Below, in pieces: positions 1-22,981 of a DNA stretch of 59,601 nt. Numbering within the stretch: the stretch's first letter is position 1; the number at the start of each line of letters is the position of its first letter. The stretch spans positions 1 through 59,601 of the forward strand of contig JAWOEX010000008.1 in the NCBI GenBank assembly GCA_046482545.1, given 5' to 3'. A program made the translations under genes and the position numbers. The DNA is from Candidatus Thorarchaeota archaeon (lineage in GTDB: Archaea > Asgardarchaeota > Thorarchaeia > Thorarchaeales > Thorarchaeaceae). A model generated the notes under the pieces. That model saw nothing but the letters and a program-made list of their open reading frames with translations, had not been told where the DNA came from and did not search any database.

Positions 1-60
1 CAATATTCTAGCATATGCATATATTTTATCAAGTCTTTATCAGAGAAACACTATCCTTTT

Positions 61-6000: not shown

Positions 6001-8193
6001 CAAGTGCATCGTGGGGATGATTTCCTCATCTTCGATTCATTCAACATTACCGTAACCAACTCGACAATCTACAGCGATATTTCTATGGAAGGTACCAACT
6101 ATACTTTCATAGGAAACCAGCTAGACAATGTCACTATTGACTTCATTAGTAGCATGGACAACCTTACCTTCATGCTCAACGCGTTTCTTACTGAGTATGA
6201 TTTCACCAATGGTTGGCAGGTAACCGGTTTTTACTTGAATGGCTCACAGTACGGCAACTACTGGCACGACTATTCCGGTACTGATTCCAATGATGACGGT
6301 ATTGGGGATGAACCGTTTAACGTTCCTATTACTTATGTTGGGTCTGACTATCTGCCTTTGATGACCAACCCTCTGGAATTCACTGTTGTGATAACGATAT
6401 ACTCGCCTTCTGACGGGAGTACTCTGCAAGGAATCGCAAACGTATTGGTCAACGTCGATGTTACCACAGGCTTCTACTACGAAGAGGGTGTGTCAACAAG
6501 CACTATCATCACCATAAATGGTACCGAGATAGCAACTGGTGGCGAGGGTGACATAGAGATCGATTGGAACACGACCGAACATGCGGATGGTTGGTACACA
6601 TTCCAAGTCACTACCACCGTGAATGACGTTGAAGACTTTGTTGAGGACATTGCAATCACGTTGGACAATACGGCACCCGTGTTGGATCCTTCAATAGAAG
6701 ATGGAGAGGCGACATCTGATAGCACACCTCAATGGCGGGTAGATGCTTCGGATGAGCTTTCAAACTTGATTTGGATTGCGGTTTATCTCGATGGTTCCGA
6801 GGTGAAGAATGAAACAGCATCGGGTCAAGGCGATTATCTTTACTTCCCCCTCGATTTGACCGAGGAGAGAAGCTATGAGCTTTGCCTATGCTCGATGGAC
6901 GAAGTTGGCAATCTCGCACAGGTGAATCTGACTATCTACTATGATACGACCCCTCCTGAGATTTCTTCCCCTAGCGACATAAGCTATGAATCAGGAACCA
7001 CGGGGAATACAATCACTTGGGTGGTAAGTGATCTTACCCCAAGCCACTATAATGTGACTATCAACGGTGAATCTTCGACACATGGCGATTGGGATGGCTC
7101 AGACATTGAAATCAATGTAGATGGGCTTGACATTGGATTCAACACAGTAAGCATTCAGGTGCACGACCGGGCTGGCAACTATGCAACAGATTTAGTAGAA
7201 GTGACTGTTACCGTAGCAGATGCACCTAGCATTGACCATCCTACAGATATCGAGTATGATGAGGGTTCGACAGGGCATAATATAACCTGGAACCCGGATG
7301 ACCCTAGTCCAGATTCGTATGTTGTGTTCCGAAATGGATCAGAAGAAGAATCCGGCAATTGGGATGGTTCATCAATCACGGTGTCAGTAGATGACCTTGG
7401 ATTAGGAGTCTACAATTTCACAATAGTGGTTAACAATACAGGCGGCTATTCAGTAGCGGACATTGTTTTCGTGACAGTAGTAGATGGTACTCCTCCCATA
7501 ATCAATCATCCACCTGATTTCAGCTATGATGAGGGAGCCACCGGCTATTCCATAATCTGGTATCCGGACGATGAACACCCTGCGAGTTATGAGATATTCA
7601 GAAACGGAACACTCGTAAAGTCAGGATTATGGAACTCTAGCGAAGAAAGCATTGAATTCAATGTTGATGGTTTGACCGCAGGAGCATACAACTTTACAAT
7701 CGTTGTGGCTGATGTTGGAGGCAATACAGTATCAGACGAAATCATTGTTACAGTGAATCCAGACACAACTATTCCTGAAATCAATCATCCCGACGATATC
7801 AGCTATGAAGAGGGAGATACAGGAAACACGATCATATGGAGTCCCAGTGACGACCACCCCTCAGGATACGAGATATTCAGAAATGGTACGCTCGTTACGT
7901 CAGGGGCTTGGAATTCGTCATCGGAGGATATCACTATCTCCGTTGATGGGCTTAACGTTGGGATCTGGAACTATACGATAGTTGTGACAGATGCAGGTGG
8001 TAATACTGTAAGTGACACAGTCCTAGTCACGGTATTTCCATCCGATACCACAACGACTACCACAGGCACTACTGAAACTACAACTACAGGACCAACTCCA
8101 GCACCATTCCCAGTTGAAATGATTGTCGCTATCGTGGGCGCAGTAGCGGTCATCGCTGTTATCATTGTAGTTGCTATAAAGAAGCGGAAGTAG
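61..8193 (+). CDS. Giant cell-surface glycoprotein: four NosD/right-handed beta-helix (CASH) modules, Ig-like repeats, Thr-rich linker and C-terminal TM anchor (2710 aa)
   Basis: N-terminal hydrophobic signal. Many N/I/G-rich beta-helix repeats. Four NGT-x-GN(F/Y)(W/Y)-type module ends (WNNGTHGNFW, FDNGTLGNFW, YNNGTFGNFY, LNGSQYGNYW). Tandem ~90-aa repeats P-I-x-HP-x-D-x-YxxG..W..D..P..Y..NG..VDGL..G.YN.TI. TTTTT linker, TM helix and KKRK tail. Confidence 0.85.
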   Translation: MTPTIEGCKESKRLLSSRASHLRFLLIVALGILLVISMPSVSRETHDDMKNDPPSLGDSSNVISATGDVYDGSGDWIITQPTVYTDNLSIVVNGDILIQNGGSLTLENSAINFNTTSPLLNVSDGGYLEGQDSNILEEGGGSVIHENYSIEIYGNISWTGGYFHHFDEITIDNSTLNATFANCDFAYGSGRIDIRRAHSVNFTGCNFYEINCGHAHLIDTTNGNLMFNGGVLIEDCTFGSESQSSPVVSEGIIDAYNFDSSGDFKILSNFFYEIVPSSSGYIIDMHYVGENSTIADNRFIRCENQIIRMSDDGAIVSGNKFFSNDIGTFADVHIINMNSNDTKIEKNFFWNNTVDSDIHVTYGNNTIRWNTVLESPRKAIELDKDADGCIVYGNALYSNNVGLYIWEQAENQQIYLNAFLDNDQHAVDKNGTNAITWNNGTHGNFWDNYTGAPSSENPWIGDSPFSPHENITDDYPSFMIGALPPSSDKWETDIPNIFAVNNLTIDGDVEVSGPTGSILLLSNSLRNTGGREFTFGENTVFMLQDAEVTTTSPTAELGDFHLTDVFYFGVIESSISNIHSEFGQNDFTVSARMVDIENSTFGNIPGMRIDLHSDYTSLVVDWEPFGMCTIENNVFEEVKGDSSKPNAMHVEWPNINFKNNSVKAASPSREVQLFSQYQTSYPYDLFVTAEGCTIANASLNVTAIGDATANITNCEIDEGIIAYSRFSNIYDTNVYIVGNTITSGGIQAGGRMWGATECYAHLDLNDNNVTGTTDLVRLSSCTANNNTFNDDLWLEDSSDCTFSSSDIKASIDFDGPLSSITFTDVVFNSSGTIDIGSTGGTCHYLTFDNCTFDMIAWQLWSNCRFVNFLDSTFYSGLDIALTPVHNVTVQSSEFYLSGDTAIHIDGNNATIVDNTIVNSSHAIIIEGGSSQGKNPIVNGNRIANISGNGIDIAPDASEVQIEGNRISNCSGFGIRARYVSNHSVVSNNYVELAGSYGIYIEAYPTGAHGYFSNVTHNVVRLCSGDGLEIEKLYNSMIFNNTLTMNGGFGVVPISCGDAAFWMNILYENDAGNIDGAGGMHFDNGTLGNFWGPSGPDGNDYYHGYDDGGNPWIGDIPYEVASGNYDNYPLLHNQPMFLNEPNTINDIFAINFRLIVLNTTLFPQKHMYLWENGNLTLIGTTVEFQSDSSTIQYVVVEDGCEFRLIGGATITANNTQATYGFGLRSGARLVIDNASIYRCGYGAGNPGFLVNITTVSFNNLRVGDSSIGMELYQISLNVSNLRFTDCGVGLLVRECSSCNISGLTFSNVDSGLQLNSSSDCTVSMNDFTGCNDYGLSIDDASSSNIIEDNIFGQIPGTALYISSSGNEIYLNAFAQNGYHIDEEGSLSNTYNNGTFGNFYLDYEGVDDDGNLVGDTSYSSAISDVVDTLPVMVFGNFPTPTGWTISRTTAALNTNYTMTGNVDIYSNLMLFDTRLWINCTSTNQYKINVYDGGSLGVSGAILRALNSTYRFGISAAEGSSLSIDNARLIDLHEFQCYTSDIQLTNATFTDVYDGLRLLGTGVTNLVLQNCTVDTAERYAIYVNQASNVTILDWVFYSVNTGVYYDDSIGTLRVVNSTFHMAGYVINGHTADILLIEGIEAYQAVTRGIRCYYVDNATILDTHIEMNGGGRAFDMDDFASYYLLQNSYAFNGTTGVRVYSLSNGTIDDCEFWNFTTGIYMDHFGDPLRLNVTNSLFYGCTTGYRGHQDGYVLVYGNTFRYCGMAINALDSEWSSFRNNQIFDSDYGFYTTYNALHHCEMVGNSYTDTDYPIYIEGTQNNFNIENETILNCIDGITLSGSWIENVTIHNITITGASGDAIYLKYSRNVLLSNLTLENFTYGIFFDLEAGPILMNASSLTNGDWAIHLEEPSLTMRDCTISDMVSGAFEYEDLWFPDLYLDIDTSNIYDGLPIYSYFNVSNAVISGHETYSLSVVQSSNVTVAQFQVHRGDDFLIFDSFNITVTNSTIYSDISMEGTNYTFIGNQLDNVTIDFISSMDNLTFMLNAFLTEYDFTNGWQVTGFYLNGSQYGNYWHDYSGTDSNDDGIGDEPFNVPITYVGSDYLPLMTNPLEFTVVITIYSPSDGSTLQGIANVLVNVDVTTGFYYEEGVSTSTIITINGTEIATGGEGDIEIDWNTTEHADGWYTFQVTTTVNDVEDFVEDIAITLDNTAPVLDPSIEDGEATSDSTPQWRVDASDELSNLIWIAVYLDGSEVKNETASGQGDYLYFPLDLTEERSYELCLCSMDEVGNLAQVNLTIYYDTTPPEISSPSDISYESGTTGNTITWVVSDLTPSHYNVTINGESSTHGDWDGSDIEINVDGLDIGFNTVSIQVHDRAGNYATDLVEVTVTVADAPSIDHPTDIEYDEGSTGHNITWNPDDPSPDSYVVFRNGSEEESGNWDGSSITVSVDDLGLGVYNFTIVVNNTGGYSVADIVFVTVVDGTPPIINHPPDFSYDEGATGYSIIWYPDDEHPASYEIFRNGTLVKSGLWNSSEESIEFNVDGLTAGAYNFTIVVADVGGNTVSDEIIVTVNPDTTIPEINHPDDISYEEGDTGNTIIWSPSDDHPSGYEIFRNGTLVTSGAWNSSSEDITISVDGLNVGIWNYTIVVTDAGGNTVSDTVLVTVFPSDTTTTTTGTTETTTTGPTPAPFPVEMIVAIVGAVAVIAVIIVVAIKKRK
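6946..8040 (+). repeat. Four tandem ~90-aa Ig-like repeat units within the surface protein
   Basis: Units begin TPPEISSPSD, DAPSIDHPTD, TPPIINHPPD and TIPEINHPDD. The last two share DNA strings (aatcaatcatcc, gagatattcagaaa). Confidence 0.8.
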
Positions 8194-8374
8194 AGCTATT
8201 CTACTTCCTACTCTCACTAAGCAGCGAACTGCTTACATGATTCATTTCATAGCAACGAGATCGGTATGGTGTGCTTCTCGTCTTACGATAGACCTAGGCT
8301 ACCAATATTTCTACTAGGCTACTAAATCTATTTTTGTCCAAATCCTCTTGTGCATATTCTCAAAAGAATCAAAT

Positions 8375-8929
8375 ATGATGGAAGACGAACGTGGTAATTA
8401 CGGCTTTAAGCTTGTTTTCTGGGGTTTGTTGATTTCAGTTCTTTACTTTAGATTGCATGGTTTCAATATCATTCCGGATTTTCTTGGATACATTGCGATT
8501 TTCGTTGGGCTTGGAAGCACAAAGGAACTTAGTTCACAATTCGAGCTCTCTCGAATCGCTGTTCTAATCCTTGTGCCTTTTTCGCTCGCTGATATCTATG
8601 AACCACCTACGGGTCAAATCACATTCTGGCCTATCTCTGTTCTCTCGTCTATTCTTTATCTAGTGTTCACATGGTTTCTTCTAGGAGGGCTCGTAGAGAC
8701 TAACAGGAATTACGACAATCCTTCCCTATCTAGTCTAGCTGAGAAAGTGCAAATTGCCGCCGCATTTGTTCTTCTATTTCCGGCTATTATTGCCTTTCAA
8801 CTAAGCCTTATTTTCCCGCCGCTTGCTATTATCATCACAGCAATGGGGCTTCTTGTCGGGATAATCGAATTATACGTAGTATATCATACTGCTGAGACCG
8901 TCGAGAATAAGCACGAGAATCATTTGTAG
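8375..8929 (+). CDS. Hypothetical multi-pass membrane protein
   Basis: About 5 hydrophobic segments and an NIIPDFLGY motif. ATG at 8375 preferred over the upstream TTG. Confidence 0.7.
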   Translation: MMEDERGNYGFKLVFWGLLISVLYFRLHGFNIIPDFLGYIAIFVGLGSTKELSSQFELSRIAVLILVPFSLADIYEPPTGQITFWPISVLSSILYLVFTWFLLGGLVETNRNYDNPSLSSLAEKVQIAAAFVLLFPAIIAFQLSLIFPPLAIIITAMGLLVGIIELYVVYHTAETVENKHENHL

Positions 8930-8995
8930 GGAAAAGATACACATACAAGGAAGGGTTTTCGCATTCTTAGATTTCTCTGGGAATGCAAATCAACG

Positions 8996-10084
8996 ATGCC
9001 ACGGACACAGATTGACTACGTCAAAGGTCAGGCCTATATAACTCGCAATGGTGAACGAAAGCCGCTTGAAATCAACATCGGGGAAGACGATTCATGGTTT
9101 ACCCTCAAAGATGGCGATATACTCGAAACTGAATCGGACAGCTATATAGTCCATATACAAGAATATGGGCGTCCAAGTGGGACAAATAGAGTCGGTGTTG
9201 GTCCCGATACGAAATTGGTTATGAAAATCAGTGGAGGTGTGATTGAGCAAATTGACCTGAAACATGGTCAGTTGACGCTGTCTGCAAACATGCCAGTTGC
9301 TACATCTATAGGTACTGTGGAATGTGCGCCCGAAGAATCACAGTACTCTGATGAGATTCTCGCAGCAATTCGTCTTACAAATAAACAACTGGACGCTGCC
9401 AACTTGGGTGGTGCGCCTCTGAGAGTTAGGGACAACACAAGCGGAGAAACGCTGTTGGTTACAGCCAACACTGCGGGGGACTATGTGTATGAACAGGTAA
9501 CACTATCCTCCGCTGGAAGCAAACTGGAAGAGATAACTACTCAGATGAAATCAATTTTTCACAAAATTGAGAATGAACTGGCAACCGAGAAAAGAGAGAA
9601 CCTGATGAAGGCCATGGGCGCTGATGACCCTGGCAAGCGCTACGTAGAAGGAATGGAGAAGATGATTGCAGATATGCGTCAAGATATTGAAGAACTTGAG
9701 AAGGAAGGAGGGGCTCCGAAAGAGCTGAAAAGGGGTGTTAAGAAGCTGGAGATGCAACTGAGTGACGCCAAGAAGGAGCTTAGAGAAAAGGAGATGCAGA
9801 AGCGGCAAGAAGAGGTGAAGAAGAAGGAACATGATGAATGGGAGAAAAAGTTTGAAGCCCGCGAAAAGCAATTCGAACGAGATTTGGAGAAAATGGCCGC
9901 AGAAGTAGATTCACAAAGTGCCACCAGTACCACAGATGAGATGACAGACCTGGAGAAGAAGATACAAGAGGCAGTATCGGAAATTGACTCAGACACGGAG
10001 GGAAGTGCTGGCTCGGATCATGATTTCAGTGAACTTGAGAAGAAGATCGAAGCTGCAGCCAAAGAACTCGACGAAGATGAGTGA
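8996..10084 (+). CDS. FecR-like beta-domain protein with a long charged coiled-coil C-terminus
   Basis: YVKGQAYITRNG...LKDGDILETESDS...VGPDTKL...LKHGQL...TSIGTV follows the FecR-type pattern. The C-terminal half is E/K-rich and helical. Confidence 0.55.
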   Translation: MPRTQIDYVKGQAYITRNGERKPLEINIGEDDSWFTLKDGDILETESDSYIVHIQEYGRPSGTNRVGVGPDTKLVMKISGGVIEQIDLKHGQLTLSANMPVATSIGTVECAPEESQYSDEILAAIRLTNKQLDAANLGGAPLRVRDNTSGETLLVTANTAGDYVYEQVTLSSAGSKLEEITTQMKSIFHKIENELATEKRENLMKAMGADDPGKRYVEGMEKMIADMRQDIEELEKEGGAPKELKRGVKKLEMQLSDAKKELREKEMQKRQEEVKKKEHDEWEKKFEAREKQFERDLEKMAAEVDSQSATSTTDEMTDLEKKIQEAVSEIDSDTEGSAGSDHDFSELEKKIEAAAKELDEDE

Positions 10085-10163
10085 GGATTCCTGATCTCCA
10101 ACCTATTGCCTAATGAAAATACAAATATACAGTATTTCTGCGAACAATTTCAACCCTCATTGA

Positions 10164-10180
10164 ACTGATATACTATCAGT
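10164..10180. promoter_or_regulatory. Inverted repeat ACTGATA-TAC-TATCAGT upstream of the TMEM165/GDT1 gene, possible operator
   Basis: Perfect 7-bp inverted repeat with a 3-nt spacer, about 50 nt before the start, overlapping an AT-rich TATA-like segment. Confidence 0.35.
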
Positions 10181-10226
10181 ATGTATCAATTAGGGTCGCA
10201 GTCCGTTTCTCGGAGTTTGAATCAAT

Positions 10227-10790
10227 GTGATTATTGAGAGTTTCTTCCTAGCTCTTGTTACCGTATCCGCCACCGAACTTGCTGACAAAACAATGCTTGT
10301 GGCAATGTGTTTTGGAGCAGAACAGCAGAATAATGGGCGGATTCTATTGGCTTTCGTTTCAGCTCTGATGGTTTCAACCTTTTTCGCCACAGTGCTAGGT
10401 AGCGGTTTGCGGGCCATCATACCGATAGATTGGCTGGTTTATGTATCGGGAGTCTTGTTCATCCTACTGGGTATCCACTCGATATTTTTCCGAGATGATG
10501 ACGAAGAGACTACTTGTCCTCCTGATGCAGAATTGGGCGCCATGTTTTCGACGGTTCTTGTTTCGGAGTTGGGCGATAAGAGTCAACTGGCAATCCTGGG
10601 TTTGGCTGTAAACTCCGCTTTCCCATTTTCTGTTTTTGCCGGTGCTATTACAGCTTTCATCGTAGTCACTATGCTATCAATCGGTATTGGTTCTACACTT
10701 GGCACATTGAGCGAGAAAAGCACTATCCACAAGATTGCTGGTGTCATATTCGTTGTTGTTGGTCTTCTTGTCATATTTGGAATTCTATAA
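10227..10790 (+). CDS. TMEM165/GDT1 (UPF0016) family Mn2+/Ca2+ transporter
   Basis: Two copies of the E-x-(G/A)-D-K-(T/S) signature (ELADKT, ELGDKSQL) and about 6 TMs. Confidence 0.9.
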   Translation: MIIESFFLALVTVSATELADKTMLVAMCFGAEQQNNGRILLAFVSALMVSTFFATVLGSGLRAIIPIDWLVYVSGVLFILLGIHSIFFRDDDEETTCPPDAELGAMFSTVLVSELGDKSQLAILGLAVNSAFPFSVFAGAITAFIVVTMLSIGIGSTLGTLSEKSTIHKIAGVIFVVVGLLVIFGIL

Positions 10791-10902
10791 GATTCAGAAG
10801 AAACGGAAGAAGCTTGATTCTCGCTGAGCTTGAATTGGAGACGAGCTGACAAGAACCGATTAAGACAAAAAGGGGTGTTTGCTTCACACAGAAGGGAATG
10901 CC

Positions 10903-11325
10903 ATGCGTAACCAGACATCATTCGCGCTTTGTATCATCGGGGGATTTCTCTTGATTTTGGCGGGTTATACTCAAGGAGTGTCAACGATTCATGTAGTCTA
11001 TAATCTCGCACACTCGATACCTGCACTATCGCAGTTCTATTGGCTGATTGACTTGGTGTTGTATGTTCTCTGGATCATCGCCTTGGCTGGGGGATTTGCA
11101 GTGATTTTTGGTGGTTACCTGCTTACCACTTCTCACATAATTACTGGTAAATTCATCGTTGCTATTGCATCTGGTTTCGGTCTATTGAGCCTGATAATCA
11201 CAATCATTCATGCGTTGATTGTATTTGGATTAGCTGGACTATTGGTCCTTGCTTGGTTCATAATGAATTCAGCATGGGCGTTAGGATTGATTTTGACAAT
11301 CATTGCTAGGCAAAAAGCTACCTAG
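10903..11325 (+). CDS. Hypothetical 4-TM membrane protein
   Basis: Four hydrophobic helices and a basic C-terminus. Confidence 0.7.
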   Translation: MRNQTSFALCIIGGFLLILAGYTQGVSTIHVVYNLAHSIPALSQFYWLIDLVLYVLWIIALAGGFAVIFGGYLLTTSHIITGKFIVAIASGFGLLSLIITIIHALIVFGLAGLLVLAWFIMNSAWALGLILTIIARQKAT

Positions 11326-13090: not shown

Positions 13091-14065
13091 TTGATAGTAA
13101 CAGTAACAGGAGTCGTAATCCTAGCATTAGGCATCCTTTCGTTGGCTCTAGCGTTCTACGGAGGCTGGATTGCTGCTTCGATTACGGAGGGTTCAGAAAT
13201 CGAGAACGAACACAGGTCTGAATACCTCTACTACCTGCTTTCCATGATTGGGCTCATTGTCTTGGTGACACGGCTCTTCAATGTGCCTTTGTTCTTCTGG
13301 CTGTTACAGTCGTTAGTTCCATTCCTACCTGGTGCAATGTGCGCGTATGGAGTGGTGAACGCCGGCTATCCTTTCTCCACAATGGCACTCTTGTCCAAAC
13401 TAATCCTACCGCTGTTTTACGGAGTTTGGTTGACTATTGATTTAGCAAATCGAAGGCAGCCGCGAATTCCACTGATGAAAACATTGGCCAGAACTTTTCT
13501 GGTAGTTCTGCTCCCATTGGTTCTATTCGATAGTACCGTGGATTTGGTTTTCGTAATCACATTGCAACCGATTGATGTGCCTTGTTGTTCTAGTGTGTAC
13601 GATGTGAATCCTCCCTTCTCTCCATCATCGCTCTTTGGACCCGTCGTAAGCTTTGTAATAATGGCACTGACAGTCATCTTGGCTCTCGCTCTGTCCGCTT
13701 TGCAATGGCTCCGGAAGGACTCCAACCTAGTGCGATTTGGCACTGTTGCGCTTTCGGGAATAGTGGCTATTCTGTATGTTCTGGCGATTCATGATGTCTT
13801 GGCACCTCTTTCTCTTGGCCTTGCTACTCACCATTGTCCATACTGTCTGTTCCAGGAGTTTCCTGATACAGCGCTTTTTGCAGGTGTTTTCTGGCTTGGA
13901 ATAGCAGCCTCTGTGTGGAGAGTGATTCTGGAGATTACTTGGAAACGAAATGGACTTGATGGAAAACATATAGAGATCATTGCCTTGGCTTTGCGAAAGA
14001 TTTCATCTGTAGCCCTACTGTTTAGCATGGTATCAGCAGTCTCACATATTATGCTGGCTCTATAG
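13091..14065 (+). CDS. Multi-pass membrane protein with conserved-looking Cys/His motifs (GAMCAYG, PCCSS, HHCPYC), probable metal-binding partner of the NosL-like/FtsX module
   Basis: About 8 TMs with three Cys/His clusters in loops. Confidence 0.65.
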   Translation: MIVTVTGVVILALGILSLALAFYGGWIAASITEGSEIENEHRSEYLYYLLSMIGLIVLVTRLFNVPLFFWLLQSLVPFLPGAMCAYGVVNAGYPFSTMALLSKLILPLFYGVWLTIDLANRRQPRIPLMKTLARTFLVVLLPLVLFDSTVDLVFVITLQPIDVPCCSSVYDVNPPFSPSSLFGPVVSFVIMALTVILALALSALQWLRKDSNLVRFGTVALSGIVAILYVLAIHDVLAPLSLGLATHHCPYCLFQEFPDTALFAGVFWLGIAASVWRVILEITWKRNGLDGKHIEIIALALRKISSVALLFSMVSAVSHIMLAL

Positions 14066-15518: not shown

Positions 15519-16202
15519 CTAATCCGGCAAATCTATTCTCCCCTCCCTAATGTCTACCACGGTATCCGCCCAGTTGAGAACATGATTATTGTGAGAAGCC
15601 ACCACGACAGTCATGTCTTCCTGGTCTATGAGATGGCGCAACTGGGAAAGCGTATTTTTCGTTAATTCGATATCCATGGAACTGCCTGGTTCATCAGCAA
15701 TCAGAATTCGAGGCGAGTTGATTAATGCACGCGCTATACTCACCCTTTGCTTCTCCCCTCCACTGAGTTCTGCAACTCTGAAATTCTTGCGATGGCTCAA
15801 CTCAAGCTTCTCTAGTTTCTCTTCCGCCTGTTCCTCTGCATCGGAGATACTCATGTCTGTACAGAGCTTTGGAAGGGCAACGTTCTCTACTGCACTTAGA
15901 TGAGGAAAAAGATACTCTGATTGAAACACAATGCCAATCTCCTCTCTCCTCATCTTCGTTTTGAAGACTTCAGAAGTACCTGAAGTGCTAGTACCTCTGA
16001 GAAAAACCTCCCCACGACTAGGAGATGTAAGCAAAGAGATGATGCTCAGCAGTGTTGTTTTTCCGGCTCCACTCGGTCCTGCAATGGCTGTTGCCTTACC
16101 TTCCGCTATCTCCAGAGTTACGTCAGCCACTGCGTGGACTTCTCTGTCTGATTCAATATGATAGGTCTTCCAGACATTCTCAAGCCGTATGGGATTTGTC
16201 AT
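15519..16202 (-). CDS. ABC transporter ATP-binding protein (LolD/MacB-type)
   Basis: Walker A GPSGAGKTT, LSGGEKQRV signature, ILIADEP, SH. Confidence 0.93.
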   Translation of the reverse strand: MTNPIRLENVWKTYHIESDREVHAVADVTLEIAEGKATAIAGPSGAGKTTLLSIISLLTSPSRGEVFLRGTSTSGTSEVFKTKMRREEIGIVFQSEYLFPHLSAVENVALPKLCTDMSISDAEEQAEEKLEKLELSHRKNFRVAELSGGEKQRVSIARALINSPRILIADEPGSSMDIELTKNTLSQLRHLIDQEDMTVVVASHNNHVLNWADTVVDIREGRIDLPD

Positions 16203-16203
16203 T

Positions 16204-17418
16204 TTACACCCCTCGCAAAACGATATCTGGTTCGGTAATGGCGTTGCGCCACGCAGGGATCACCGAAGCAACTAGAATCGGAACGATACCAACGGCGTAG
16301 GCTGTGAATATGGTGCTTGGTGAAACCACGAGCGGCATACCACCTACGAGCAAACTGGTGCTCCACCCTAGAACAAATTCTGAAAGAAGAGGTGCCCCCA
16401 AGAAATAATCGTAGACTATTGCAAAGCTGATTCCAGTGCTACACCCCAGCAGGCCAAGAATGAGGTTCTCGAACATACGAATTTCTAGGACATCAACTGT
16501 GTCGAATCCAAGTGCCTTGAGAAGACCAACTTCCCTCCGTGCTTCATCTGAGCCTGAGCTTGAAACTGTGAATGCAAGAAGAACCACAACAAGTAGCAGA
16601 ACAGCCCAGAGCAACGCTACTATGCCGGCTCGAACTGAATAAGCACGAAGTCCCATATCCCGCATGGCGGATTTGCTGAGTATCCGTGCCTCCGGAAAGG
16701 TGTTATCCATTTGAAGCGCTATACTGTTGGTATTGTATCCCGGACTTGTCCACACTGCGATATCCGTGCACGAGTCGTTGGCAACTCCTAGCACCTCTCT
16801 CGCGCTCTGAATATCGGTCATAAGGAGATCATAGCTGTAGATTTTAGATTCGCTGGAAAATATCCCAACGATTTCAAAGGGAATGAGTGAGTTGTCATAA
16901 GCAATCAAGCTTATTTGAGAACCAACACCTAGGCTTACTGATGTCATTGACCTTTGCATCAAATCCAGAATTCCTTGTCCCACAATAAGCTTATGCGTGT
17001 CATTCTGGGGCAGGAACGATCCCTCTCCTATGATATCTGTTCCAACTGCTCCTGGTGTCTCTTCATATTCCACAGGATCAATTCCCATAATCGTCAGCAA
17101 TTTTCCACTACCAACATCAGCGTACCCCCAGACACGGGGTAGGACATCCTCAACTCCACTGTATTCAGTAAGATTGTCACGCCAAGAAGTGGGGCATGGT
17201 GCTTGTCTTCCACCAACAAGCTTCTGTACGGTGATGTCTGGACCTTCATCTAGGGAAAGTGAGAGATCTTGTGTGACACCTTGCCGGATGAATTCAATCG
17301 AGCAAAGAAGTGACGTGGACATGGCTAGTGCAATAATGATAGCAGCTGTCTTGCTTCTGTGTTTGATGATATTACCGATTGCATAATTTGCCAGATTAGC
17401 GTGCTTTCTTGCGCCCAT
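16204..17418 (-). CDS. FtsX/MacB-like ABC transporter permease
   Basis: N-terminal TM, large extracellular domain, RREVGLLKALG motif, C-terminal IPAWRNA..EP. Confidence 0.9.
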   Translation of the reverse strand: MGARKHANLANYAIGNIIKHRSKTAAIIIALAMSTSLLCSIEFIRQGVTQDLSLSLDEGPDITVQKLVGGRQAPCPTSWRDNLTEYSGVEDVLPRVWGYADVGSGKLLTIMGIDPVEYEETPGAVGTDIIGEGSFLPQNDTHKLIVGQGILDLMQRSMTSVSLGVGSQISLIAYDNSLIPFEIVGIFSSESKIYSYDLLMTDIQSAREVLGVANDSCTDIAVWTSPGYNTNSIALQMDNTFPEARILSKSAMRDMGLRAYSVRAGIVALLWAVLLLVVVLLAFTVSSSGSDEARREVGLLKALGFDTVDVLEIRMFENLILGLLGCSTGISFAIVYDYFLGAPLLSEFVLGWSTSLLVGGMPLVVSPSTIFTAYAVGIVPILVASVIPAWRNAITEPDIVLRGV

Positions 17419-17812
17419 ATGATGACCTCCCGATTAGAATTATGATTGCAGGTGGTATAAGTGAAAAAGCAATGAATAACATGATTATTCGAAGATTAGC
17501 TAGTTGACGACCAACGGGAATTGGTGATAATGGGATATCCAGAGATACTGGATTCTCATGAATGACTGGACTCACTATTGGATTGCCCCTGTAGAGTGAA
17601 TAGCCACCTGGGATGTCTCCTAGGATACCATGAATGGTTTCCAACATTGGTGCTCTGAAGCTATACGAATCTTGAACTATGCTTGGCCCCAGCTCAGGAA
17701 ATGGCCATGGTGCTCCTCTAATGGCTTGCAGACTATGAAAGAGGGCAAAGGCGATACTAAATGATACAAGGACAATAATGAAAGCCACGACTGCCTTTTT
17801 CCTATGCTTCAT
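17396..17812 (-). CDS. Hypothetical 2-TM protein with a Pro-rich extracellular loop
   Basis: N- and C-terminal hydrophobic helices. Overlaps the permease start, so part of the operon. Confidence 0.6.
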   Translation of the reverse strand: MKHRKKAVVAFIIVLVSFSIAFALFHSLQAIRGAPWPFPELGPSIVQDSYSFRAPMLETIHGILGDIPGGYSLYRGNPIVSPVIHENPVSLDIPLSPIPVGRQLANLRIIMLFIAFSLIPPAIIILIGRSSYGRKKAR

Positions 17813-17822
17813 TCTTCTCCCT

Positions 17823-18293
17823 TCATTCCGGCCAAATGTATGGATTCTCTATTCGCTGCCCACCATACTGAGTGATGAAATGACTCTCACACAGCTCCTC
17901 ACCGTATGCGTCTTCGCAGAGCGCCACTATGGTTGGTTCTTGGATGGTAGGATTCACATATTCTTCAGAATAGACCCAGACGATCATGGGGTCATTCCAG
18001 TCCATTTCCATGCCGCAGATTGGACAGTGGACTCTGATATTCTCAAGCAGAGTGATTTCTCCTGTTGTTTTCAGTTCCTCAAAAGCCAACAGAGAGATGT
18101 TTATACAACAATAGTGTCTTTCAGTTCCATTTGTGAACGTAAATGTAACCTCGTTGCCTAGCCGATCCTTGATGAGATTGCCTGTCCAATCACAATAGTC
18201 TGTTGTAGGCAAGGTGATAGTATAGGTGTATATCGCCACGCAACCTAGGATGACAAAGACGATTTGAACCATCTGTTTCTGCTGGTGATTCAA
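17823..18293 (-). CDS. NosL-like / TRASH-like Cys-rich membrane-anchored metal-binding protein
   Basis: N-terminal TM, then YCDWTGNLI..TNG..HYCC, HCPICGM and a C-terminal F-x-x-x-YGG reminiscent of the NosL fold. Confidence 0.55.
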   Translation of the reverse strand: MNHQQKQMVQIVFVILGCVAIYTYTITLPTTDYCDWTGNLIKDRLGNEVTFTFTNGTERHYCCINISLLAFEELKTTGEITLLENIRVHCPICGMEMDWNDPMIVWVYSEEYVNPTIQEPTIVALCEDAYGEELCESHFITQYGGQRIENPYIWPE

Positions 18294-18307
18294 CTCAGAT
18301 TCACCGG

Positions 18308-18514
18308 CTACTCAGCAGTTTCAAGAGATGTGTACATGCCTAGGAAACTCAAGATCGCAATGCTCAGACCCAAGACGGTCTCTACATCGCGAGTGAACCA
18401 GCATCGCATCTCTGTAACGCAGACCGGTGCAAAAGTCCAGGGCGCAATTGCTACAATAATCCCAAGAATCATCGTCAGTAGATAGATAATTGCTTCAGTT
18501 TTCATGTTCTTCAA
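18308..18514 (-). CDS. DUF4418-like small 2-TM protein
   Basis: PWTFAPVC..MRCWFT motif between two TM helices. Confidence 0.65.
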   Translation of the reverse strand: MKNMKTEAIIYLLTMILGIIVAIAPWTFAPVCVTEMRCWFTRDVETVLGLSIAILSFLGMYTSLETAE

Positions 18515-18531
18515 TCCTGTCTTCGAATGTT

Positions 18532-18927
18532 TTAGATATCGATAGTATACGTCTGTGAATCAGCTGAATTCTGCATCTCATCGAATGCAGTTACGTAGAA
18601 ACTGTAACTGTCTCCACTGCTCACCTTCCCGACGGAAGCCACCCAGCGGCCGCCTGCAATACAAAGGCAAGCAAAGAATTGCATGTCTCTTGTTTGCCAT
18701 TCACCATCGTTTTTCGAGAAGTGTAGCTTTGCTCCCGAAACACCAGAAGGGTCAATGCAATAGATTACAACCCGTACTTCATCATCTGGCTTTGGTGGGG
18801 ACGGTCTTATGTCGATTTGATAGATATTGGGTCCGCTTACATCACTGAAGGCTGCAGAATAGATAGCCCATGAGAGTCCAACTACGAGGAGAACTCCGAC
18901 GCAGGCCAACTTAGTCTTTGTCTTCAT
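18532..18927 (-). CDS. Exported/anchored Ig-like beta-sandwich protein with a CxC motif
   Basis: N-terminal signal/TM, DPSGVSGAKLHFS..W and YVTAFD..N pattern, FFACLCIAGG. Confidence 0.6.
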   Translation of the reverse strand: MKTKTKLACVGVLLVVGLSWAIYSAAFSDVSGPNIYQIDIRPSPPKPDDEVRVVIYCIDPSGVSGAKLHFSKNDGEWQTRDMQFFACLCIAGGRWVASVGKVSSGDSYSFYVTAFDEMQNSADSQTYTIDI

Positions 18928-18984
18928 TCAACTCACAGACTCCAAGCTACTCAATGAGGTGGTTGTGAAGAATATCAGTCTTTC

Positions 18985-19032
18985 GTCGAACTCTTTTTCG
19001 ACTCGGTGGAAAGTATAAATACCCAGCCGAGT
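18985..19032. promoter_or_regulatory. Divergent promoter: BRE/TATA box (GGAAAG-TATAAATA, TATA at 19014-19021) flanked by inverted repeats
   Basis: GTCGAA-N6-TTCGAC at 18985-19002, and ACTCGG (19001-19006) ... CCGAGT (19027-19032) bracketing the TATA box. Confidence 0.5.
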
Positions 19033-19073
19033 GTATAGCGAAAATCAAAGCCGCTTTCGGACGGATTGAGACA

Positions 19074-20708
19074 ATGAGTCAAGCCATCAAGCAAAACAAA
19101 TACTTCCTAACTACCGTCATTCTGAGTATTATTCTCTTCAGCATGACTTTCGGAAATCTACCCGGCCCCTCCACAGAAACAGGGACAGTGGATGTAAACG
19201 GGGAGAGCTATGATTTCAGCAAATATGGAGCTGTGAATAAAGAGCAACTGGCTCTCTTCAATTATCTCAACACACTTGTTAGCCGTGAATATCAGGAATA
19301 CGGTGAATGGGAGGGATGGTACGCTGAGGATTTCCATGGCCTTCATCATTATGTTCTGGCTTTCATGGATTATGCAGTTTCCAGTTTGTTCGAAACTACT
19401 CCGGGGTATCGCACAGATCACTACCAAGGGTTTGCCTATGATCTCGTTAAGAAGATGAACACGACAGAAGACGTTTGGGGCAACAACAGCATAGAATGGA
19501 AGGAGTGGACGCACCCAAGCTACAACTATGTTGATTATTACTATCCGAATAGCACACATCCAGATGGCGATGATATTTACACTGGTGGTTTCCGAGGACC
19601 TGCGAACATCATGTGGACAGGACACTACGCACTGATGATGTCCCTTTATGAACGTTCATTCAAGACTGGGGAGATGACGGATGAAATCTCATGGTTCGTT
19701 GAAGACTGGAACAATTCTTTGACAACTGATGGTCTTGGCAATCCGAAAGAAGGCGGCATATGGGGTGTCGGCCTTATTCCCTGCGAGCCATACATTGTTT
19801 TTGTTCAATGCAACAGCATACCGATCTATACAACGGAGCTCTACGATAACATGTACGGGACCCCGTACATGGAAAGCGGTATGTGGGATGCCGGTGTGGA
19901 ATATGCTAACGAAGTTATGCAAGATGAGTATGACTTGTTCACTGATGGCTACTTCGTACAAGAACAATTCGGTCACGTTTACTCTGAAGAGCGATTACCT
20001 GACGAATACCCTGGGCCGCAGATGTCATTCTATGTTGACGACAAACCGAAGGTATCCTCCTATTGCGATGCTTGGGCACTATCATTCTTGGAGTATACAC
20101 AGCCCGAGAAAACCGCGGAAGACTATCCTGTCTTTATGAAGCATTTCAAGAAAGATATATCCAGTGACCAATGCTACATGATGGACACGTATAATAATCC
20201 TGATGGCTTTGGCACCTACGATATCTTGGGTAGTTTGTTCTCAATGGCACTCACCAAGCAACAGGGTGATTTTGTAACTCTGGAGCGTTTGATGAATTTT
20301 CTTTACGGTTCATACAACAAAATATGGGATGGGCGGAAGATGCATTTCGACACCATGAGTCTGGAGCCCTTTCTTCAACCTGTGCTTGCATTTGGCTGGC
20401 TTTGGGCAACCACACCGGTCACGGTGAAAGACTTGGCAGAAGCGAGACCAGCAGGGTTCTGGGGTTATCCGTATATCAGCGAGGCCGACGATGACAATAT
20501 CTGGGTCTATCAGGCTGAGTGGGATCCAGATAGAGAAGGCTTCATTCTAAATGTCGAAGTAGAAGAACAAGCTACTATCACATTCAGCAATTTCGACCAC
20601 GAGCCAGTTCCGCATCATAATGGAGCTCCCCTTCAGGAAATGACACAACAGAACGGAGACTGGGTGTTGACATTAGATCCAGGATCATATCAGTTGGTGA
20701 TAACATGA
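19074..20708 (+). CDS. Linalool dehydratase/isomerase (Ldi/LinD) family protein, N-terminally anchored or exported, with a C-terminal beta extension
   Basis: YVLAFMDYA, NIMWTGHYALM, IPCEPYIVFVQCNS, YD..YGT and KPKVSSYCDAWAL match, in order, the LinD motifs YSIAFYAYG, NIMYKGHLNLM, IVCEPDNYFVQCNS, YDRLHGT and KPWISAYTTAWTL (LinD recalled from memory). Confidence 0.85.
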   Translation: MSQAIKQNKYFLTTVILSIILFSMTFGNLPGPSTETGTVDVNGESYDFSKYGAVNKEQLALFNYLNTLVSREYQEYGEWEGWYAEDFHGLHHYVLAFMDYAVSSLFETTPGYRTDHYQGFAYDLVKKMNTTEDVWGNNSIEWKEWTHPSYNYVDYYYPNSTHPDGDDIYTGGFRGPANIMWTGHYALMMSLYERSFKTGEMTDEISWFVEDWNNSLTTDGLGNPKEGGIWGVGLIPCEPYIVFVQCNSIPIYTTELYDNMYGTPYMESGMWDAGVEYANEVMQDEYDLFTDGYFVQEQFGHVYSEERLPDEYPGPQMSFYVDDKPKVSSYCDAWALSFLEYTQPEKTAEDYPVFMKHFKKDISSDQCYMMDTYNNPDGFGTYDILGSLFSMALTKQQGDFVTLERLMNFLYGSYNKIWDGRKMHFDTMSLEPFLQPVLAFGWLWATTPVTVKDLAEARPAGFWGYPYISEADDDNIWVYQAEWDPDREGFILNVEVEEQATITFSNFDHEPVPHHNGAPLQEMTQQNGDWVLTLDPGSYQLVIT

Positions 20709-22196: not shown

Positions 22197-22577
22197 TCAG
22201 TAGCTAAGGCTTTGTTTATGCGCTTGATCCGCCCACAGCTTGCGGTAAAAATAAAAATATTCGAAGAGTGCCGGAACATCATCACAGAACAGGATTTCAT
22301 GTTCCCGGATTACATTCATTTTCATATGAAGAGGAAGCTCTTCAAACAACCTTACATCGTATTTGTCAGCATTAATTCTCTTCCAGATTCTTCCGAGCAA
22401 ATCCGCTTTCTCTTTTGGTGTCTGAGCGTCTGGAGCAACCACGCAGAGATCAATATCGCTTTGGGGAGTCATTTCACCCCGCACATAAGAGCCAAACAGC
22501 AGTACACCTTGAATAGAACTCAAATCACTTAGCCATTCAAGTTCGTGTCTTATTTGTGGAAGGTCTGGGACATCCAT
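22197..22577 (-). CDS. MNT (minimal nucleotidyltransferase) antitoxin, MntA-like
   Basis: LFGSYVRG...SDIDL (GSx10DxD). Confidence 0.9.
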   Translation of the reverse strand: MDVPDLPQIRHELEWLSDLSSIQGVLLFGSYVRGEMTPQSDIDLCVVAPDAQTPKEKADLLGRIWKRINADKYDVRLFEELPLHMKMNVIREHEILFCDDVPALFEYFYFYRKLWADQAHKQSLSY

Positions 22578-22981
22578 GTTTCTACCTCCTCTATGTATTT
22601 CTCCATTTGTGGAAGGGTTCGTTTCACGCTTCGAATTAGTAAATCAATATCTAAATCATTGTATATGTGTACTATTCGATTTCTAAGGCCATTAGCTTCT
22701 CTAAGAACATCAGCTGATTCCGGAGAAATGATGTGATTATCTTTTGCCATCTTGACATTTGAGTAATTATCCATAGGTGGCAATTCGTTGTCTTTCAGCA
22801 TCATAGCTAGGATATCGGTTGAAACTTCGACAACTTCTTGGTACGCCTTTTGGATTATGAGTAGGGTTTCTGTATCGTTGAAATCGCTACCTGATTGAAG
22901 TTTCTGATTTAGTAGGGAAATCCGCATTCTACCGTGGTTAATCTTCTGCATGTATCTCTTGCGGCGGATTTCATTCGACAT
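22550..22981 (-). CDS. HEPN (DUF86/HepT-like) ribonuclease toxin
   Basis: LRNRIVHIY (Rx4H plus Tyr). Overlaps the MNT gene. Confidence 0.88.
   Translation of the reverse strand: MSNEIRRKRYMQKINHGRMRISLLNQKLQSGSDFNDTETLLIIQKAYQEVVEVSTDILAMMLKDNELPPMDNYSNVKMAKDNHIISPESADVLREANGLRNRIVHIYNDLDIDLLIRSVKRTLPQMEKYIEEVETWMSQTFHK

Follow-up and report, generated by a model that had tools for sequence, protein, structure and literature searches.

What would a relative of the linalool dehydratase/isomerase LinD be doing at the surface of an Asgard archaeon? The locus examined here, which lies in a window of 59,601 nucleotides from a Thorarchaeota genome (by window we mean the whole stretch of DNA that was analysed), raises this question in the form of a 544-aa protein that was originally predicted to be a LinD homologue with intact catalytic residues, and whose gene stands between a small membrane protein gene and a divergent six-gene operon (Table 1). 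The Ldi family has only two characterised representatives, both acting on monoterpene alcohols and both from monoterpene-degrading betaproteobacteria, and our literature searches returned nothing on the family in archaea or in Asgard archaea in particular, nor on 'Ldi domain' proteins generally.

Table 1. Features of the Ldi locus in window coordinates, with strand and the basis of each assignment.
Feature	Position	Strand	Basis
ABC ATPase	15519-16202	-	Pfam ABC_tran
Divergent six-gene operon, possible accessory module	15519..18927	-	Pfam (ABC_tran, FtsX, DUF4418), Atlas (NosL-like)
FtsX permease	16204-17418	-	Pfam
2-TM protein	17396-17812	-	in divergent operon
NosL-like protein	17823-18293	-	Atlas only, TM 0.63-0.69 to NosL clusters; fails Pfam
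DUF4418	18308-18514	-	Pfam
Exported beta protein	18532-18927	-	in divergent operon
Divergent intergenic region, 146 bp, TATA-like TATAAATA at about 19014-19021	18928..19073	.	read from sequence only
544-aa Ldi-superfamily protein gene (Asgard clade)	19074..20708	+	ORF, Pfam, AlphaFold2, LinD superposition
N-terminal hydrophobic helix, residues 9-26, then conserved TFGNLPGP	19098..19151	+	hydropathy, AlphaFold2 model
Insertion relative to LinD, residues 145-176, WTHPSYNYVDYYYPNS...GGFRGP	19506..19601	+	alignments; conserved in Thor family
NIMWTGH motif (N178, M180, G183, H184) = LinD N-I-M125-x-x-G-H129	19605..19625	+	phmmer alignment
C237-E238-P-x6-C246-N247 motif (IPCEPYIVFVQCNSI) = LinD C171-E172...C180-N	19782..19814	+	phmmer alignment
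C-terminal beta-sandwich-like domain, residues about 464-544	20463..20705	+	all-beta in AlphaFold2 model
ECF S-component-like membrane protein, 204 aa	20705..21319	+	Pfam on orthologues, Foldseek

Homology to LinD is borne out at the level of both sequence and structure. The Pfam Ldi profile PF18566 gives the protein 51.3 bits (E 1.7e-13), over its curated gathering threshold of 26.1, and recovers the gene above threshold in a six-frame search of the genome; an NCBIfam search with the protein gave no match, and LinD chains are the sole phmmer matches among PDB sequences (E about 5e-10). The AlphaFold2 model (pLDDT 91.2) has LinD as its best Foldseek match (E 4e-14, TM 0.80), and VIA-align superposes the two with Z 39.6 and an rmsd of 2.4 Å over 348 residues, the next folds standing at Z about 22; in these structural comparisons identity to LinD is no more than 20-22%. 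The protein has 219 homologue clusters, and as the named homologues are almost all from Thorarchaeota, its original attribution to a probable Asgard archaeon was correct.

The residues singled out by the original prediction (M180, H184, C237, E238 and C246) are found in the ORF where it placed them. The phmmer alignment pairs NIMWTGH with NIMYKGH of LinD, and IPCEPYIVFVQCNSI with IVCEPDNYFVQCNSV, and because both motif alignments are gap-free the spacing is that of M125/H129 and C171/E172/C180 in LinD (Cys171 and Cys180 being Cys170 and Cys179 in other numbering). None of M180, H184, C237 and C246 varies among 34 close homologues, in which residue 238 is Glu in 29 and Gln in five; in 34 divergent representatives of the superfamily no variation is seen at C237, E238, C246, N247, N178 or G183, and conservation at M180, H184 and Y93 is 90% or more. 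The protein has two further cysteines, 331 and 367, and family-wide only 237 and 246 are kept. The catalytic Cys/His/Met set is shared with LinD, and superposition of the model would place it in the same pocket. In LinD, exchange of the catalytic cysteines for Ala or Ser leaves an inactive enzyme (PMC6600392). One could suppose that the Asgard protein has merely retained the Ldi fold as a non-catalytic binding or structural protein of the cell surface, a role that would suit its candidate membrane anchor, its acidity, its probable glycosylation and its beta-sandwich tail; the catalytic-type residues are, however, invariant in the close homologues and across the superfamily, which argues for retained chemistry, and we regard such a role as very improbable indeed. 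As the same motif residues are common to the whole, mostly uncharacterised Ldi superfamily, they are uninformative with respect to linalool-type substrates, and argue for a shared chemistry and not for LinD-like substrates.

The description of the catalytic residues as intact stands for Met-x3-His and Cys-Glu-x7-Cys, and is incomplete as regards other parts of the LinD active site. LinD is a periplasmic homopentamer with its active site at the subunit interface, to which Asp39' from the neighbouring subunit and Tyr45 contribute, and its intrasubunit disulfide C48-C101 is essential and caps the site (PMC6600392; the residue roles used here are drawn from PMC6600392, PMC12455561 and PMC6013536). 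The two disulfide positions align by phmmer to G77 and T131, leaving no cysteine pair; D39 aligns to N66, a position that is variable in the 34 homologues (D in 14, N in 12, another residue in eight); and the equivalent of Y45 is ambiguous, being Y73 by phmmer and Q74 by MAFFT. With neither a capping disulfide nor a conserved Asp at the D39' position, the pocket must be built differently. The insertion ending in GGFRGP, which the original prediction had also described and which alignments confirm, could perhaps form the pocket in place of the LinD cap; its model has a pLDDT of 81-88, and Y155, P158, G171, R174 and P176 are invariant in the 34 homologues.

Phylogeny separates the protein from LinD still further. 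In our tree, from which the sequence of the linalool isomerase Lis was left out, it falls within an Asgard-only group (SH-aLRT 99) and the short LinD-type proteins form a group of their own (SH-aLRT 99), so that it is no LinD orthologue; it belongs to a clade of Ldi-superfamily proteins that is found only in Asgard archaea, with members in 42 of the 76 genomes sampled from the window's family and in two further Asgard families. A functional equivalent of LinD, that is, a monoterpene (linalool, geraniol, myrcene) dehydratase/isomerase serving catabolism or detoxification, would account for the shared Cys/Cys/His/Met/Glu set and the nearly superposable barrel. We nonetheless think it highly improbable, given the separate clade at low identity, the missing disulfide and conserved Asp, and a gene context without geoA/geoB-like genes (the annotated neighbours include neither a geraniol or geranial dehydrogenase nor any other gene of terpene catabolism).

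The C-terminal beta domain, correctly foreseen as part of the protein, is modelled with confidence (pLDDT blocks of 93-97 over residues 461-544) and lies outside the LinD match, but it is not an archaeal addition, as a homologous domain is carried by most bacterial relatives of 500-600 aa. The barrel with a C-terminal beta domain is the common form of the family, and LinD is its short outlier. The bacterial two-domain proteins come from uncultured Myxococcota/deltaproteobacteria, Bacteroidales, Geobacter, Desulfobacteraceae, Acidobacteria and Elusimicrobia, and in their loci HGD-D and BcrAD-type dehydratase components recur as neighbours, as does SfLAP. The gene of one Bacteroidales relative belongs to a same-strand run that also encodes a CruF-like Caroten_synth protein and one of Phenol_MetA_deg type; this context, like the activity of both characterised family members on monoterpene alcohols, offers a weak hint of a hydrophobic or isoprenoid substrate.

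Where the enzyme resides can be approached from its N-terminus and composition. The N-terminal anchor of the original prediction is recovered by hydropathy and in the AlphaFold2 model, and the same layout, a hydrophobic helix followed by TFGNLPGP, is seen in 34 of 34 aligned homologues; the helix is a candidate signal anchor or signal peptide. An outward location is predicted from this element together with a net charge of -54, conserved N-x-S/T sequons, the periplasmic residence of LinD and the N-termini of the bacterial relatives, which are likewise hydrophobic. Six of the 21 aligned two-domain bacterial proteins also bear a C-terminal Cys and hydrophobic tail, and the members of one such cluster are named MYXO-CTERM by JGI.

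The most constant companion of the enzyme is the S-component-like gene. Its start overlaps the enzyme stop by 4 nt (ATGA), and it comes directly after the Ldi gene in each of the 26 further Asgard loci that we examined, with enzyme identity falling as low as 33%; in those 10 of 11 Thor loci whose ORF start is unambiguous, its distance from the end of the enzyme gene is -4 to +12 nt, and where the Ldi gene is tandemly duplicated each copy keeps a partner of its own. PF07155 matches nine of 11 orthologues of the small protein (best E 7.5e-8), and the window's own copy scores 22.5 bits with PF12822, below the cut-off of 30.7. The model shows multiple transmembrane helices, and its top 25 Foldseek matches in the PDB are all ECF S components, at a weak E of about 1e-2 and with a pLDDT of 66.6; a profile of the protein gave no match among PDB sequences. 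Four EcfT/CbiQ genes are present elsewhere in the genome, none of them adjacent to the pair, and these could energise a solitary S component. In 24 bacterial Ldi loci, tblastn with the window's proteins detected no S-like, DUF4418, FtsX, ABC or NosL-like gene.

To our knowledge, S components bind water-soluble vitamins and not lipids, and this, together with the fold, invites the reading that the same barrel and core serve a polar extracellular substrate, either carbohydrate-derived (e.g. hydration of an unsaturated sugar, as in GH88/GH105) or a vitamin precursor, with the S component importing the product. The non-Ldi folds nearest to the model by VIA-align are indeed carbohydrate enzymes (GH105/YteR, GH88, GH76 and cellobiose 2-epimerases, at Z 20-22), Foldseek also matches GH127, and the architecture of a secreted barrel with a beta-sandwich at its C-terminal end is reminiscent of glycoside hydrolases, GH127 among them; the protein is, moreover, rich in Tyr and Trp. 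Yet the LinD superposition far exceeds that with any glycosidase, the catalytic residues of GH88, GH105 and GH127 have no demonstrated alignment here, no CAZyme or sugar-metabolism gene is found among the annotated neighbours, and all characterised family members act on terpene alcohols. We consider a polar substrate rather unlikely.

The divergent operon is a looser associate. In six of 25 other Asgard loci the Ldi-S pair has a NosL-like/DUF4418/FtsX-ABC operon next to it, in two gene arrangements. Cys, His and Met are typical soft-metal ligands, and it is conceivable that the invariant Cys, Cys, His and Met (with Glu) bind Cu or Zn in a surface metalloprotein serviced by the NosL-like, DUF4418 and FtsX-ABC proteins, much as NosDFYL attends N2O reductase; the neighbourhood of a NosL-like protein (assigned by Atlas only) and FtsX/ABC, here and in those six loci, is what such a reading would expect. 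Against it, the operon is non-adjacent in the remaining 19 loci, the NosL assignment fails Pfam, the six operon proteins used as queries gave no match in the 24 bacterial loci, and LinD is reported to work without a cofactor (PMC6013536). We judge a metal-binding role improbable. Two other sets of neighbours were considered and set aside. A kinase pair (an AA_kinase-family protein and a 273-aa protein) follows the Ldi-S pair in only seven of 26 loci, at variable distance, and is absent from the window, a homologue of the 273-aa protein lying on another contig of the genome; it was rejected as a member of the unit. Genes of conserved Thor synteny (wyosine tRNA enzymes, PCMT, translin, an RbkR-like riboflavin kinase, a glycosyltransferase and a peroxiredoxin) look like housekeeping neighbours and were rejected as functional partners.

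Our best explanation for the locus, which we hold tentatively and would place a little short of an even chance, is that of an outward-facing, membrane-tethered Ldi enzyme that hydrates, dehydrates or isomerises an alcohol or alkene of hydrophobic and perhaps isoprenoid nature and is coupled to the S-component-like protein. Homology, fold, conserved residues and the strict pairing of the two genes are what the analysis shows. The tethering and topology are read only from the N-terminal helix and composition. Within the (alpha/alpha)6 barrel, Cys237 and Cys246, accompanied by Glu238, His184, Met180, Asn178 and Asn247, would by homology to LinD form a thiol/thiolate acid-base pair, the shared residues suggesting that the enzyme is cofactor-free as LinD is. 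The pair would then catalyse hydration or dehydration at a C=C bond or at an allylic or tertiary alcohol, or migration of a hydroxyl group. The substrate is likely hydrophobic, and most plausibly an isoprenoid alcohol or alkene; long isoprenoid alcohols or phytol had been put forward as possible substrates by the original prediction. We infer that the enzyme is made together with the six-helix partner and probably works with it, the partner serving to bind the substrate or the product on the outer side of the membrane, whether for uptake or in presenting a membrane-embedded lipid. Several observations weigh against this explanation, namely the glutamine at position 238 in five of the 34 close homologues, the absent capping disulfide and D39' Asp, the lack of terpene-catabolic genes among the annotated neighbours, the carbohydrate-enzyme folds nearest after Ldi, and the known association of S components with vitamins. 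In a bolder and, in our estimation, unlikely version, the enzyme would dock on a toppling S-type protein as a surface module of a kind not described before, which captures or extracts long isoprenoid alcohols or lipids (such as phytol, geranylgeraniol or unsaturated archaeal lipid chains), isomerises or (de)hydrates them and passes them across the membrane for Asgard lipid salvage or remodelling, assisted in some lineages by a MacB-type (FtsX/ABC) machine.

As a biocatalyst that forms and hydrates alkenes without a cofactor, LinD is valued, and an Asgard clade whose cap region differs and whose membrane partner is obligatory would widen the known sequence and substrate space of Ldi chemistry. 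The locus further suggests that the physiology of sediment Asgard archaea includes an extracellular step not yet explored, and a substrate that proved to be an isoprenoid alcohol or membrane lipid would have implications for how lipids are acquired or remodelled in these organisms; should the substrate prove ordinary, it would represent one more uncharacterised exported enzyme. The partner would, if our reading is true, be the first protein of the S-component type to be linked with an ectoenzyme, and our paper searches, aimed at the Ldi family and not at S components, returned nothing on such a link.

Set beside known systems, the partner resembles the ECF S components RibU, FolT, ThiT, BioY and PanT in its size of about 200 aa, its PF07155 matches in nine of 11 orthologues and its Foldseek matches, weak though these are, and differs from them in falling below the Pfam cut-off in the window's copy, in having no adjacent EcfT or EcfA, and in being tied to an ectoenzyme. 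The uncharacterised bacterial two-domain Ldi proteins have the same architecture and invariant motifs as the enzyme, at 18-25% identity to the window's protein. Another Ldi relative anchored in the membrane is known from Thauera linaloolentis 47Lol, whose linalool isomerase Lis is about 20% identical to LinD and needs a reductant; in Lis four N-terminal transmembrane helices are fused to a predicted cytosolic domain (PMC4791888), whereas the Asgard protein has one N-terminal helix, a predicted outward domain and a separate six-helix partner; Lis shows that members of the family can work at the membrane on hydrophobic alcohols. LinD of Castellaniella defragrans 65Phen (EC 4.2.1.127; PDB 5G1U, 5HLR and 5I3T) shares the same (alpha/alpha)6 barrel over 348 of about 363 residues, the same NIM-x-x-GH and CE-x7-CN at identical spacing, and export, which is predicted for the Asgard protein likewise. 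Along its length the latter adds a membrane anchor, a conserved stretch of about 25 residues inserted ahead of the NIM motif, and the C-terminal beta domain, and it does without two LinD features, the C48-C101 disulfide and a conserved Asp at D39'; and its gene is paired with an S-component-like one, not with genes of terpene catabolism.

The open reading frame of the putative linalool dehydratase/isomerase (Ldi) family enzyme encodes 544 residues, and its translation places M180 and H184 within ANIMWTGH and C237, E238 and C246 within IPCEPYIVFVQCNSI, just where the original prediction had them; the enzyme contains just four cysteines (237, 246, 331 and 367), and an insertion, WTHPSYNYVDYYYPNS...GGFRGP, occupies residues 145-176. 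With a score of 51.3 bits (E 1.7e-13) the enzyme clears the 26.1-bit cut-off of the Pfam Ldi profile (PF18566), an NCBIfam search with the enzyme returned no match, and the chains of LinD, the linalool dehydratase/isomerase of Castellaniella defragrans, were its sole phmmer matches among all PDB sequences (E ~5e-10). In that alignment NIMWTGH pairs with NIMYKGH of LinD, and IPCEPYIVFVQCNSI with IVCEPDNYFVQCNSV, both free of gaps, and the spacing is therefore that of M125/H129 and C171/E172/C180 of LinD, as had been claimed. An AlphaFold2 model built from 34 homologues (mean pLDDT 91.2, pTM 0.90) gave LinD entries as the first-ranked Foldseek matches in the PDB (E 4e-14, target TM 0.80, 20% identity), followed by GH127 and GH105 as the next group (E ~1e-3). 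Superposition on LinD with VIA-align covered 348 residues, between positions 25 and 463 of the model, with a Z of 39.6 and an rmsd of 2.4 A, compared with a Z of only 20-22 for the next folds, which were YteR/GH105, GH88, GH76 and the cellobiose 2-epimerases. Given the gap-free alignment and the tightness of this superposition, C237 and C246 are predicted to lie in a LinD-like pocket; of the checks proposed with the original prediction, the Ldi profile search and the superposition both came out in its favor. With cellobiose 2-epimerases among the runners-up and LinD well ahead of them, a polar or carbohydrate-derived substrate is conceivable and, in our estimation, unlikely.

Genes around the enzyme and predicted regions of the enzyme
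Feature	Position	Strand	Remark
FtsX permease and ABC ATPase genes	within 15519-18927	(-)	
2-TM protein	17396-17812	(-)	
NosL-like protein	17823-18293	(-)	ESM Atlas only, TM 0.63-0.69
DUF4418 protein	18308-18514	(-)	37.5 bits, cut-off 27
Exported beta-rich protein	18532-18927	(-)	
Enzyme	19074-20708	(+)	
S-component-like partner, 204 aa	20705-21319	(+)	start overlaps enzyme stop codon by 4 nt
N-terminal helix	enzyme residues 9-26		AlphaFold2 model
Short beta hairpin	after N-terminal helix		AlphaFold2 model
Alpha/alpha barrel	to ~residue 463 of enzyme		AlphaFold2 model
All-beta C-terminal domain	enzyme residues ~464-544		AlphaFold2 model

M180, H184, C237 and C246 are invariant among 34 close homologues, in which C237 and C246 are also the only conserved cysteines, and residue 238 is Glu in 29 and Gln in five. 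Across 34 very divergent representatives of the superfamily (mean column identity 19%), N178, G183, C237, E238, C246 and N247 are invariant, and conservation reaches 90% or more at Y93, F97, Y100, P110, M180, H184, L191, D258 and W334. The conserved columns of the enzyme are the hallmark of the whole Ldi superfamily, and since the same residues are kept superfamily-wide, their retention argues for a common family chemistry rather than for the substrates of LinD. In LinD both homologous cysteines must be reduced and are required for all reactions (PMC6600392), and H128, Y44, D38, C179 and C170, in an alternative numbering, are cited as active-site residues (PMC12455561). The five homologues with Gln at 238, a position adjoining the first catalytic-type cysteine and otherwise invariantly Glu in the close alignment, are all from Thorarchaeota (P0040, P0053, P0060, P0067 and P0071); the two included in our tree, P0040 and P0053, form a subclade.

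The predicted N-terminal anchor is present in all 34 aligned homologues as a short basic stretch, 16-17 hydrophobic residues and a conserved TFGNLPGP. The mature part of the enzyme has a net charge of ~-54 and 7.9% Tyr, and of its sequons N129 is kept in 34/34 homologues and N213 in 30/34. The natural reading of these sequence features is an outward-facing enzyme, membrane-tethered or secreted; LinD is periplasmic (PMC6600392). Such a location would also suit a non-catalytic surface protein, a reading to which, with the catalytic-type residues invariant, we attach hardly any credence.

Full-length homologues form 219 clusters at 90% identity, and those with names come nearly all from Thorarchaeota MAGs, in keeping with the Asgard host that had been proposed. 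Some already bear the NCBI label 'linalool dehydratase/isomerase domain-containing protein', and the family assignment, being automatic in public annotation, is not new. The window's genome (3.05 Mb, 98.9% complete) carries one copy. In a sample of 301 genomes of the phylum, 42 of the 76 from the window's family carry the gene, as do, at 35-38% identity, 2 of 3 genomes in a second family and 4 of 21 in a third; the search of 27 other families gave no hit. Of 1.84 billion cluster representatives searched exhaustively with HMMER, only 65 matched, namely the Thorarchaeota cluster, three or four further Asgard clusters (named by NCBI as Hodarchaeales and Helarchaeota) and, more weakly, bacterial proteins (E 1e-10 to 1e-3). 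The majority of the distant relatives are bacterial, 500-600 aa long, with hydrophobic N-termini and the same C-terminal beta domain; 6 of 21 aligned bacterial two-domain relatives end in a Cys and hydrophobic tail, and members of one such cluster are named MYXO-CTERM by JGI.

A maximum likelihood tree of 50 sequences (IQ-TREE in quick-search mode, with SH-aLRT as the sole support measure and midpoint rooting for display, the sequence of the Thauera linaloolentis linalool isomerase, Lis, left out) resolved four supported groups: short LinD-type proteins of ~400 aa (99), bacterial two-domain groups A (97) and B (95), and an Asgard group that includes the window's protein (99). The occurrence of the beta domain in most relatives, together with this topology, indicates that the domain is the common state and LinD a short outlier, and not, as originally described, that the domain was added. 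By its placement in the tree the enzyme is judged not to be an orthologue of LinD; shared motifs notwithstanding, a true LinD-like monoterpene role seems very improbable. Our literature search found no paper on archaeal Ldi-family proteins or the two-domain form, and a 2018 review gave Lis as the only protein then known with sequence similarity to LDI (PMC6013536).

The partner gene lies directly 3' of the enzyme gene in every Asgard locus examined (26 other loci, 27 pairs), including 20 wider loci from different genera and five loci of two distant Asgard families in which the enzyme is 33-35% identical. Where the unit is duplicated in tandem, each enzyme copy has its partner behind it. Of the first 11 Thorarchaeota loci, ten have -4 to +12 nt between the two genes, the ORF start being ambiguous in the eleventh. 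A profile search for the partner gave 238 clusters, a count similar to that of the enzyme, with the named ones nearly all from Thorarchaeota and some called 'ECF transporter S component'. The window's copy scores 22.5 bits against ECF_trnsprt, below the Pfam cut-off, and 9 of 11 orthologues match PF07155 (ECF-ribofla_trS; best E 7.5e-8). From a model with a pLDDT of 66.6, the best 25 Foldseek PDB matches were all ECF S components (RibU, FolT, ThiT, BioY, PanT), with probability ~1, TM 0.5-0.69 and E only ~1e-2. No tblastn match to the window's partner was obtained in 24 bacterial loci with Ldi-family members. Four CbiQ/EcfT-type proteins are encoded elsewhere in the window's genome, and a shared energizing module would thus be available in principle.

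We tentatively favor, while stopping short of calling it probable, a mechanism in which a surface-exposed, cofactor-free Cys/Cys acid-base member of the Ldi superfamily would catalyze (de)hydration or isomerization of a hydrophobic, plausibly isoprenoid, alcohol or alkene, and in which the S-component-like protein would work with it by binding substrate or product.

The tandem duplication spans the whole enzyme-partner unit (locus L019, G173:C16, ~5041-10950), with peroxiredoxin and FUR-family genes between the copies. Many Thorarchaeota genomes have a gene for an HTH and CTP-dependent riboflavin kinase (RbkR-like; L051:1764-2450 and equivalents in 15 Thorarchaeota loci) at a distance of ~6-7 kb from the pair, and the partner matches a riboflavin-type S-component family; this nearness is probably plain synteny.

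Upstream of the enzyme, six tightly packed genes occupy 15519-18927 on the minus strand, among them the NosL-like gene, whose product has no Pfam match. Of 25 other loci, six have this operon, or its FtsX/ABC/2-TM core, beside the pair: four are from Thorarchaeota genomes and show the divergent arrangement of the window, and in the other two, from genomes of a distant Asgard family, it comes after the pair and shares its strand. As the association is seen in two gene orders but only in a minority of loci, the operon is possibly an accessory module of the pair and not part of a core unit. A metal site in the enzyme serviced by the NosL-like/FtsX-ABC system would fit the association where it occurs; weighed against this patchy distribution, we regard it as quite improbable. 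A 324-aa protein without a Pfam family (13091-14065, +) has exactly the distribution of the FtsX permease homologue, both being present in seven loci (L015, L018, L048, L053, L054, L059 and the window), and may belong to the FtsX-containing module.

Among other neighbors, an AA_kinase-family protein and a 273-aa protein are encoded behind the pair in 7 of 26 loci. We rejected this kinase pair as part of the unit, given its variable distance, its restriction to those loci and its absence from the window, whose genome has a homologue of the 273-aa protein on another contig. The genes recurring near the pair in many Thorarchaeota genomes are housekeeping genes. Within the window, at 22197-22981 on the minus strand, a gene for a nucleotidyltransferase (Polbeta/NTP_transf_2, the one gene of the two searched in Pfam) and the 143-aa gene upstream of it overlap in a layout resembling MNT/HEPN-type toxin-antitoxin pairs, and two ORFs are very long (1-8193, +, which extends beyond the window start and has 2710 aa or more; 31707-35516, -, 1269 aa).

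Bacterial group B relatives match Pfam Ldi far better (228-245 bits). Encoded beside them are components of the HGD-D and BcrAD types, membrane proteins of the SfLAP family and, in a single case, a Caroten_synth protein resembling CruF; for this branch that hints weakly, at best, at substrates of a hydrophobic or isoprenoid kind. At L037 and L042 two-domain Ldi-family genes adjoin genes for HGD-D (2-hydroxyacyl-CoA dehydratase-like) and for BcrAD/BadFG activators; no neighbor family is more frequent than HGD-D (7 of 87 bacterial neighbor ORFs, pooled over the bacterial loci). In a Bacteroidales MAG the genes for the CruF-like membrane protein and a Phenol_MetA_deg-type protein (L046:5166-6976, +) immediately precede the Ldi-family gene and have its orientation.

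The claim of intact catalytic residues stands for M180, H184, C237 and C246 and is incomplete for other LinD-specific features. The C48-C101 disulfide of LinD is essential and caps its active site (PMC6600392), whereas the corresponding positions of the enzyme are G77 and T131 (phmmer alignment), leaving no capping disulfide. D39' of LinD, contributed by the neighboring subunit, aligns to N66, a variable column among the 34 close homologues (D in 14, N in 12, other in 8), and Y45 aligns to Y73 by phmmer and to Q74 by MAFFT. With neither the disulfide nor a conserved equivalent of D39', the region capping the pocket would be built differently in the enzyme from that of LinD, and the 145-176 insertion, in which Y155, P158, G171, R174 and P176 are invariant among the 34 close homologues, is a candidate for the substitute cap.
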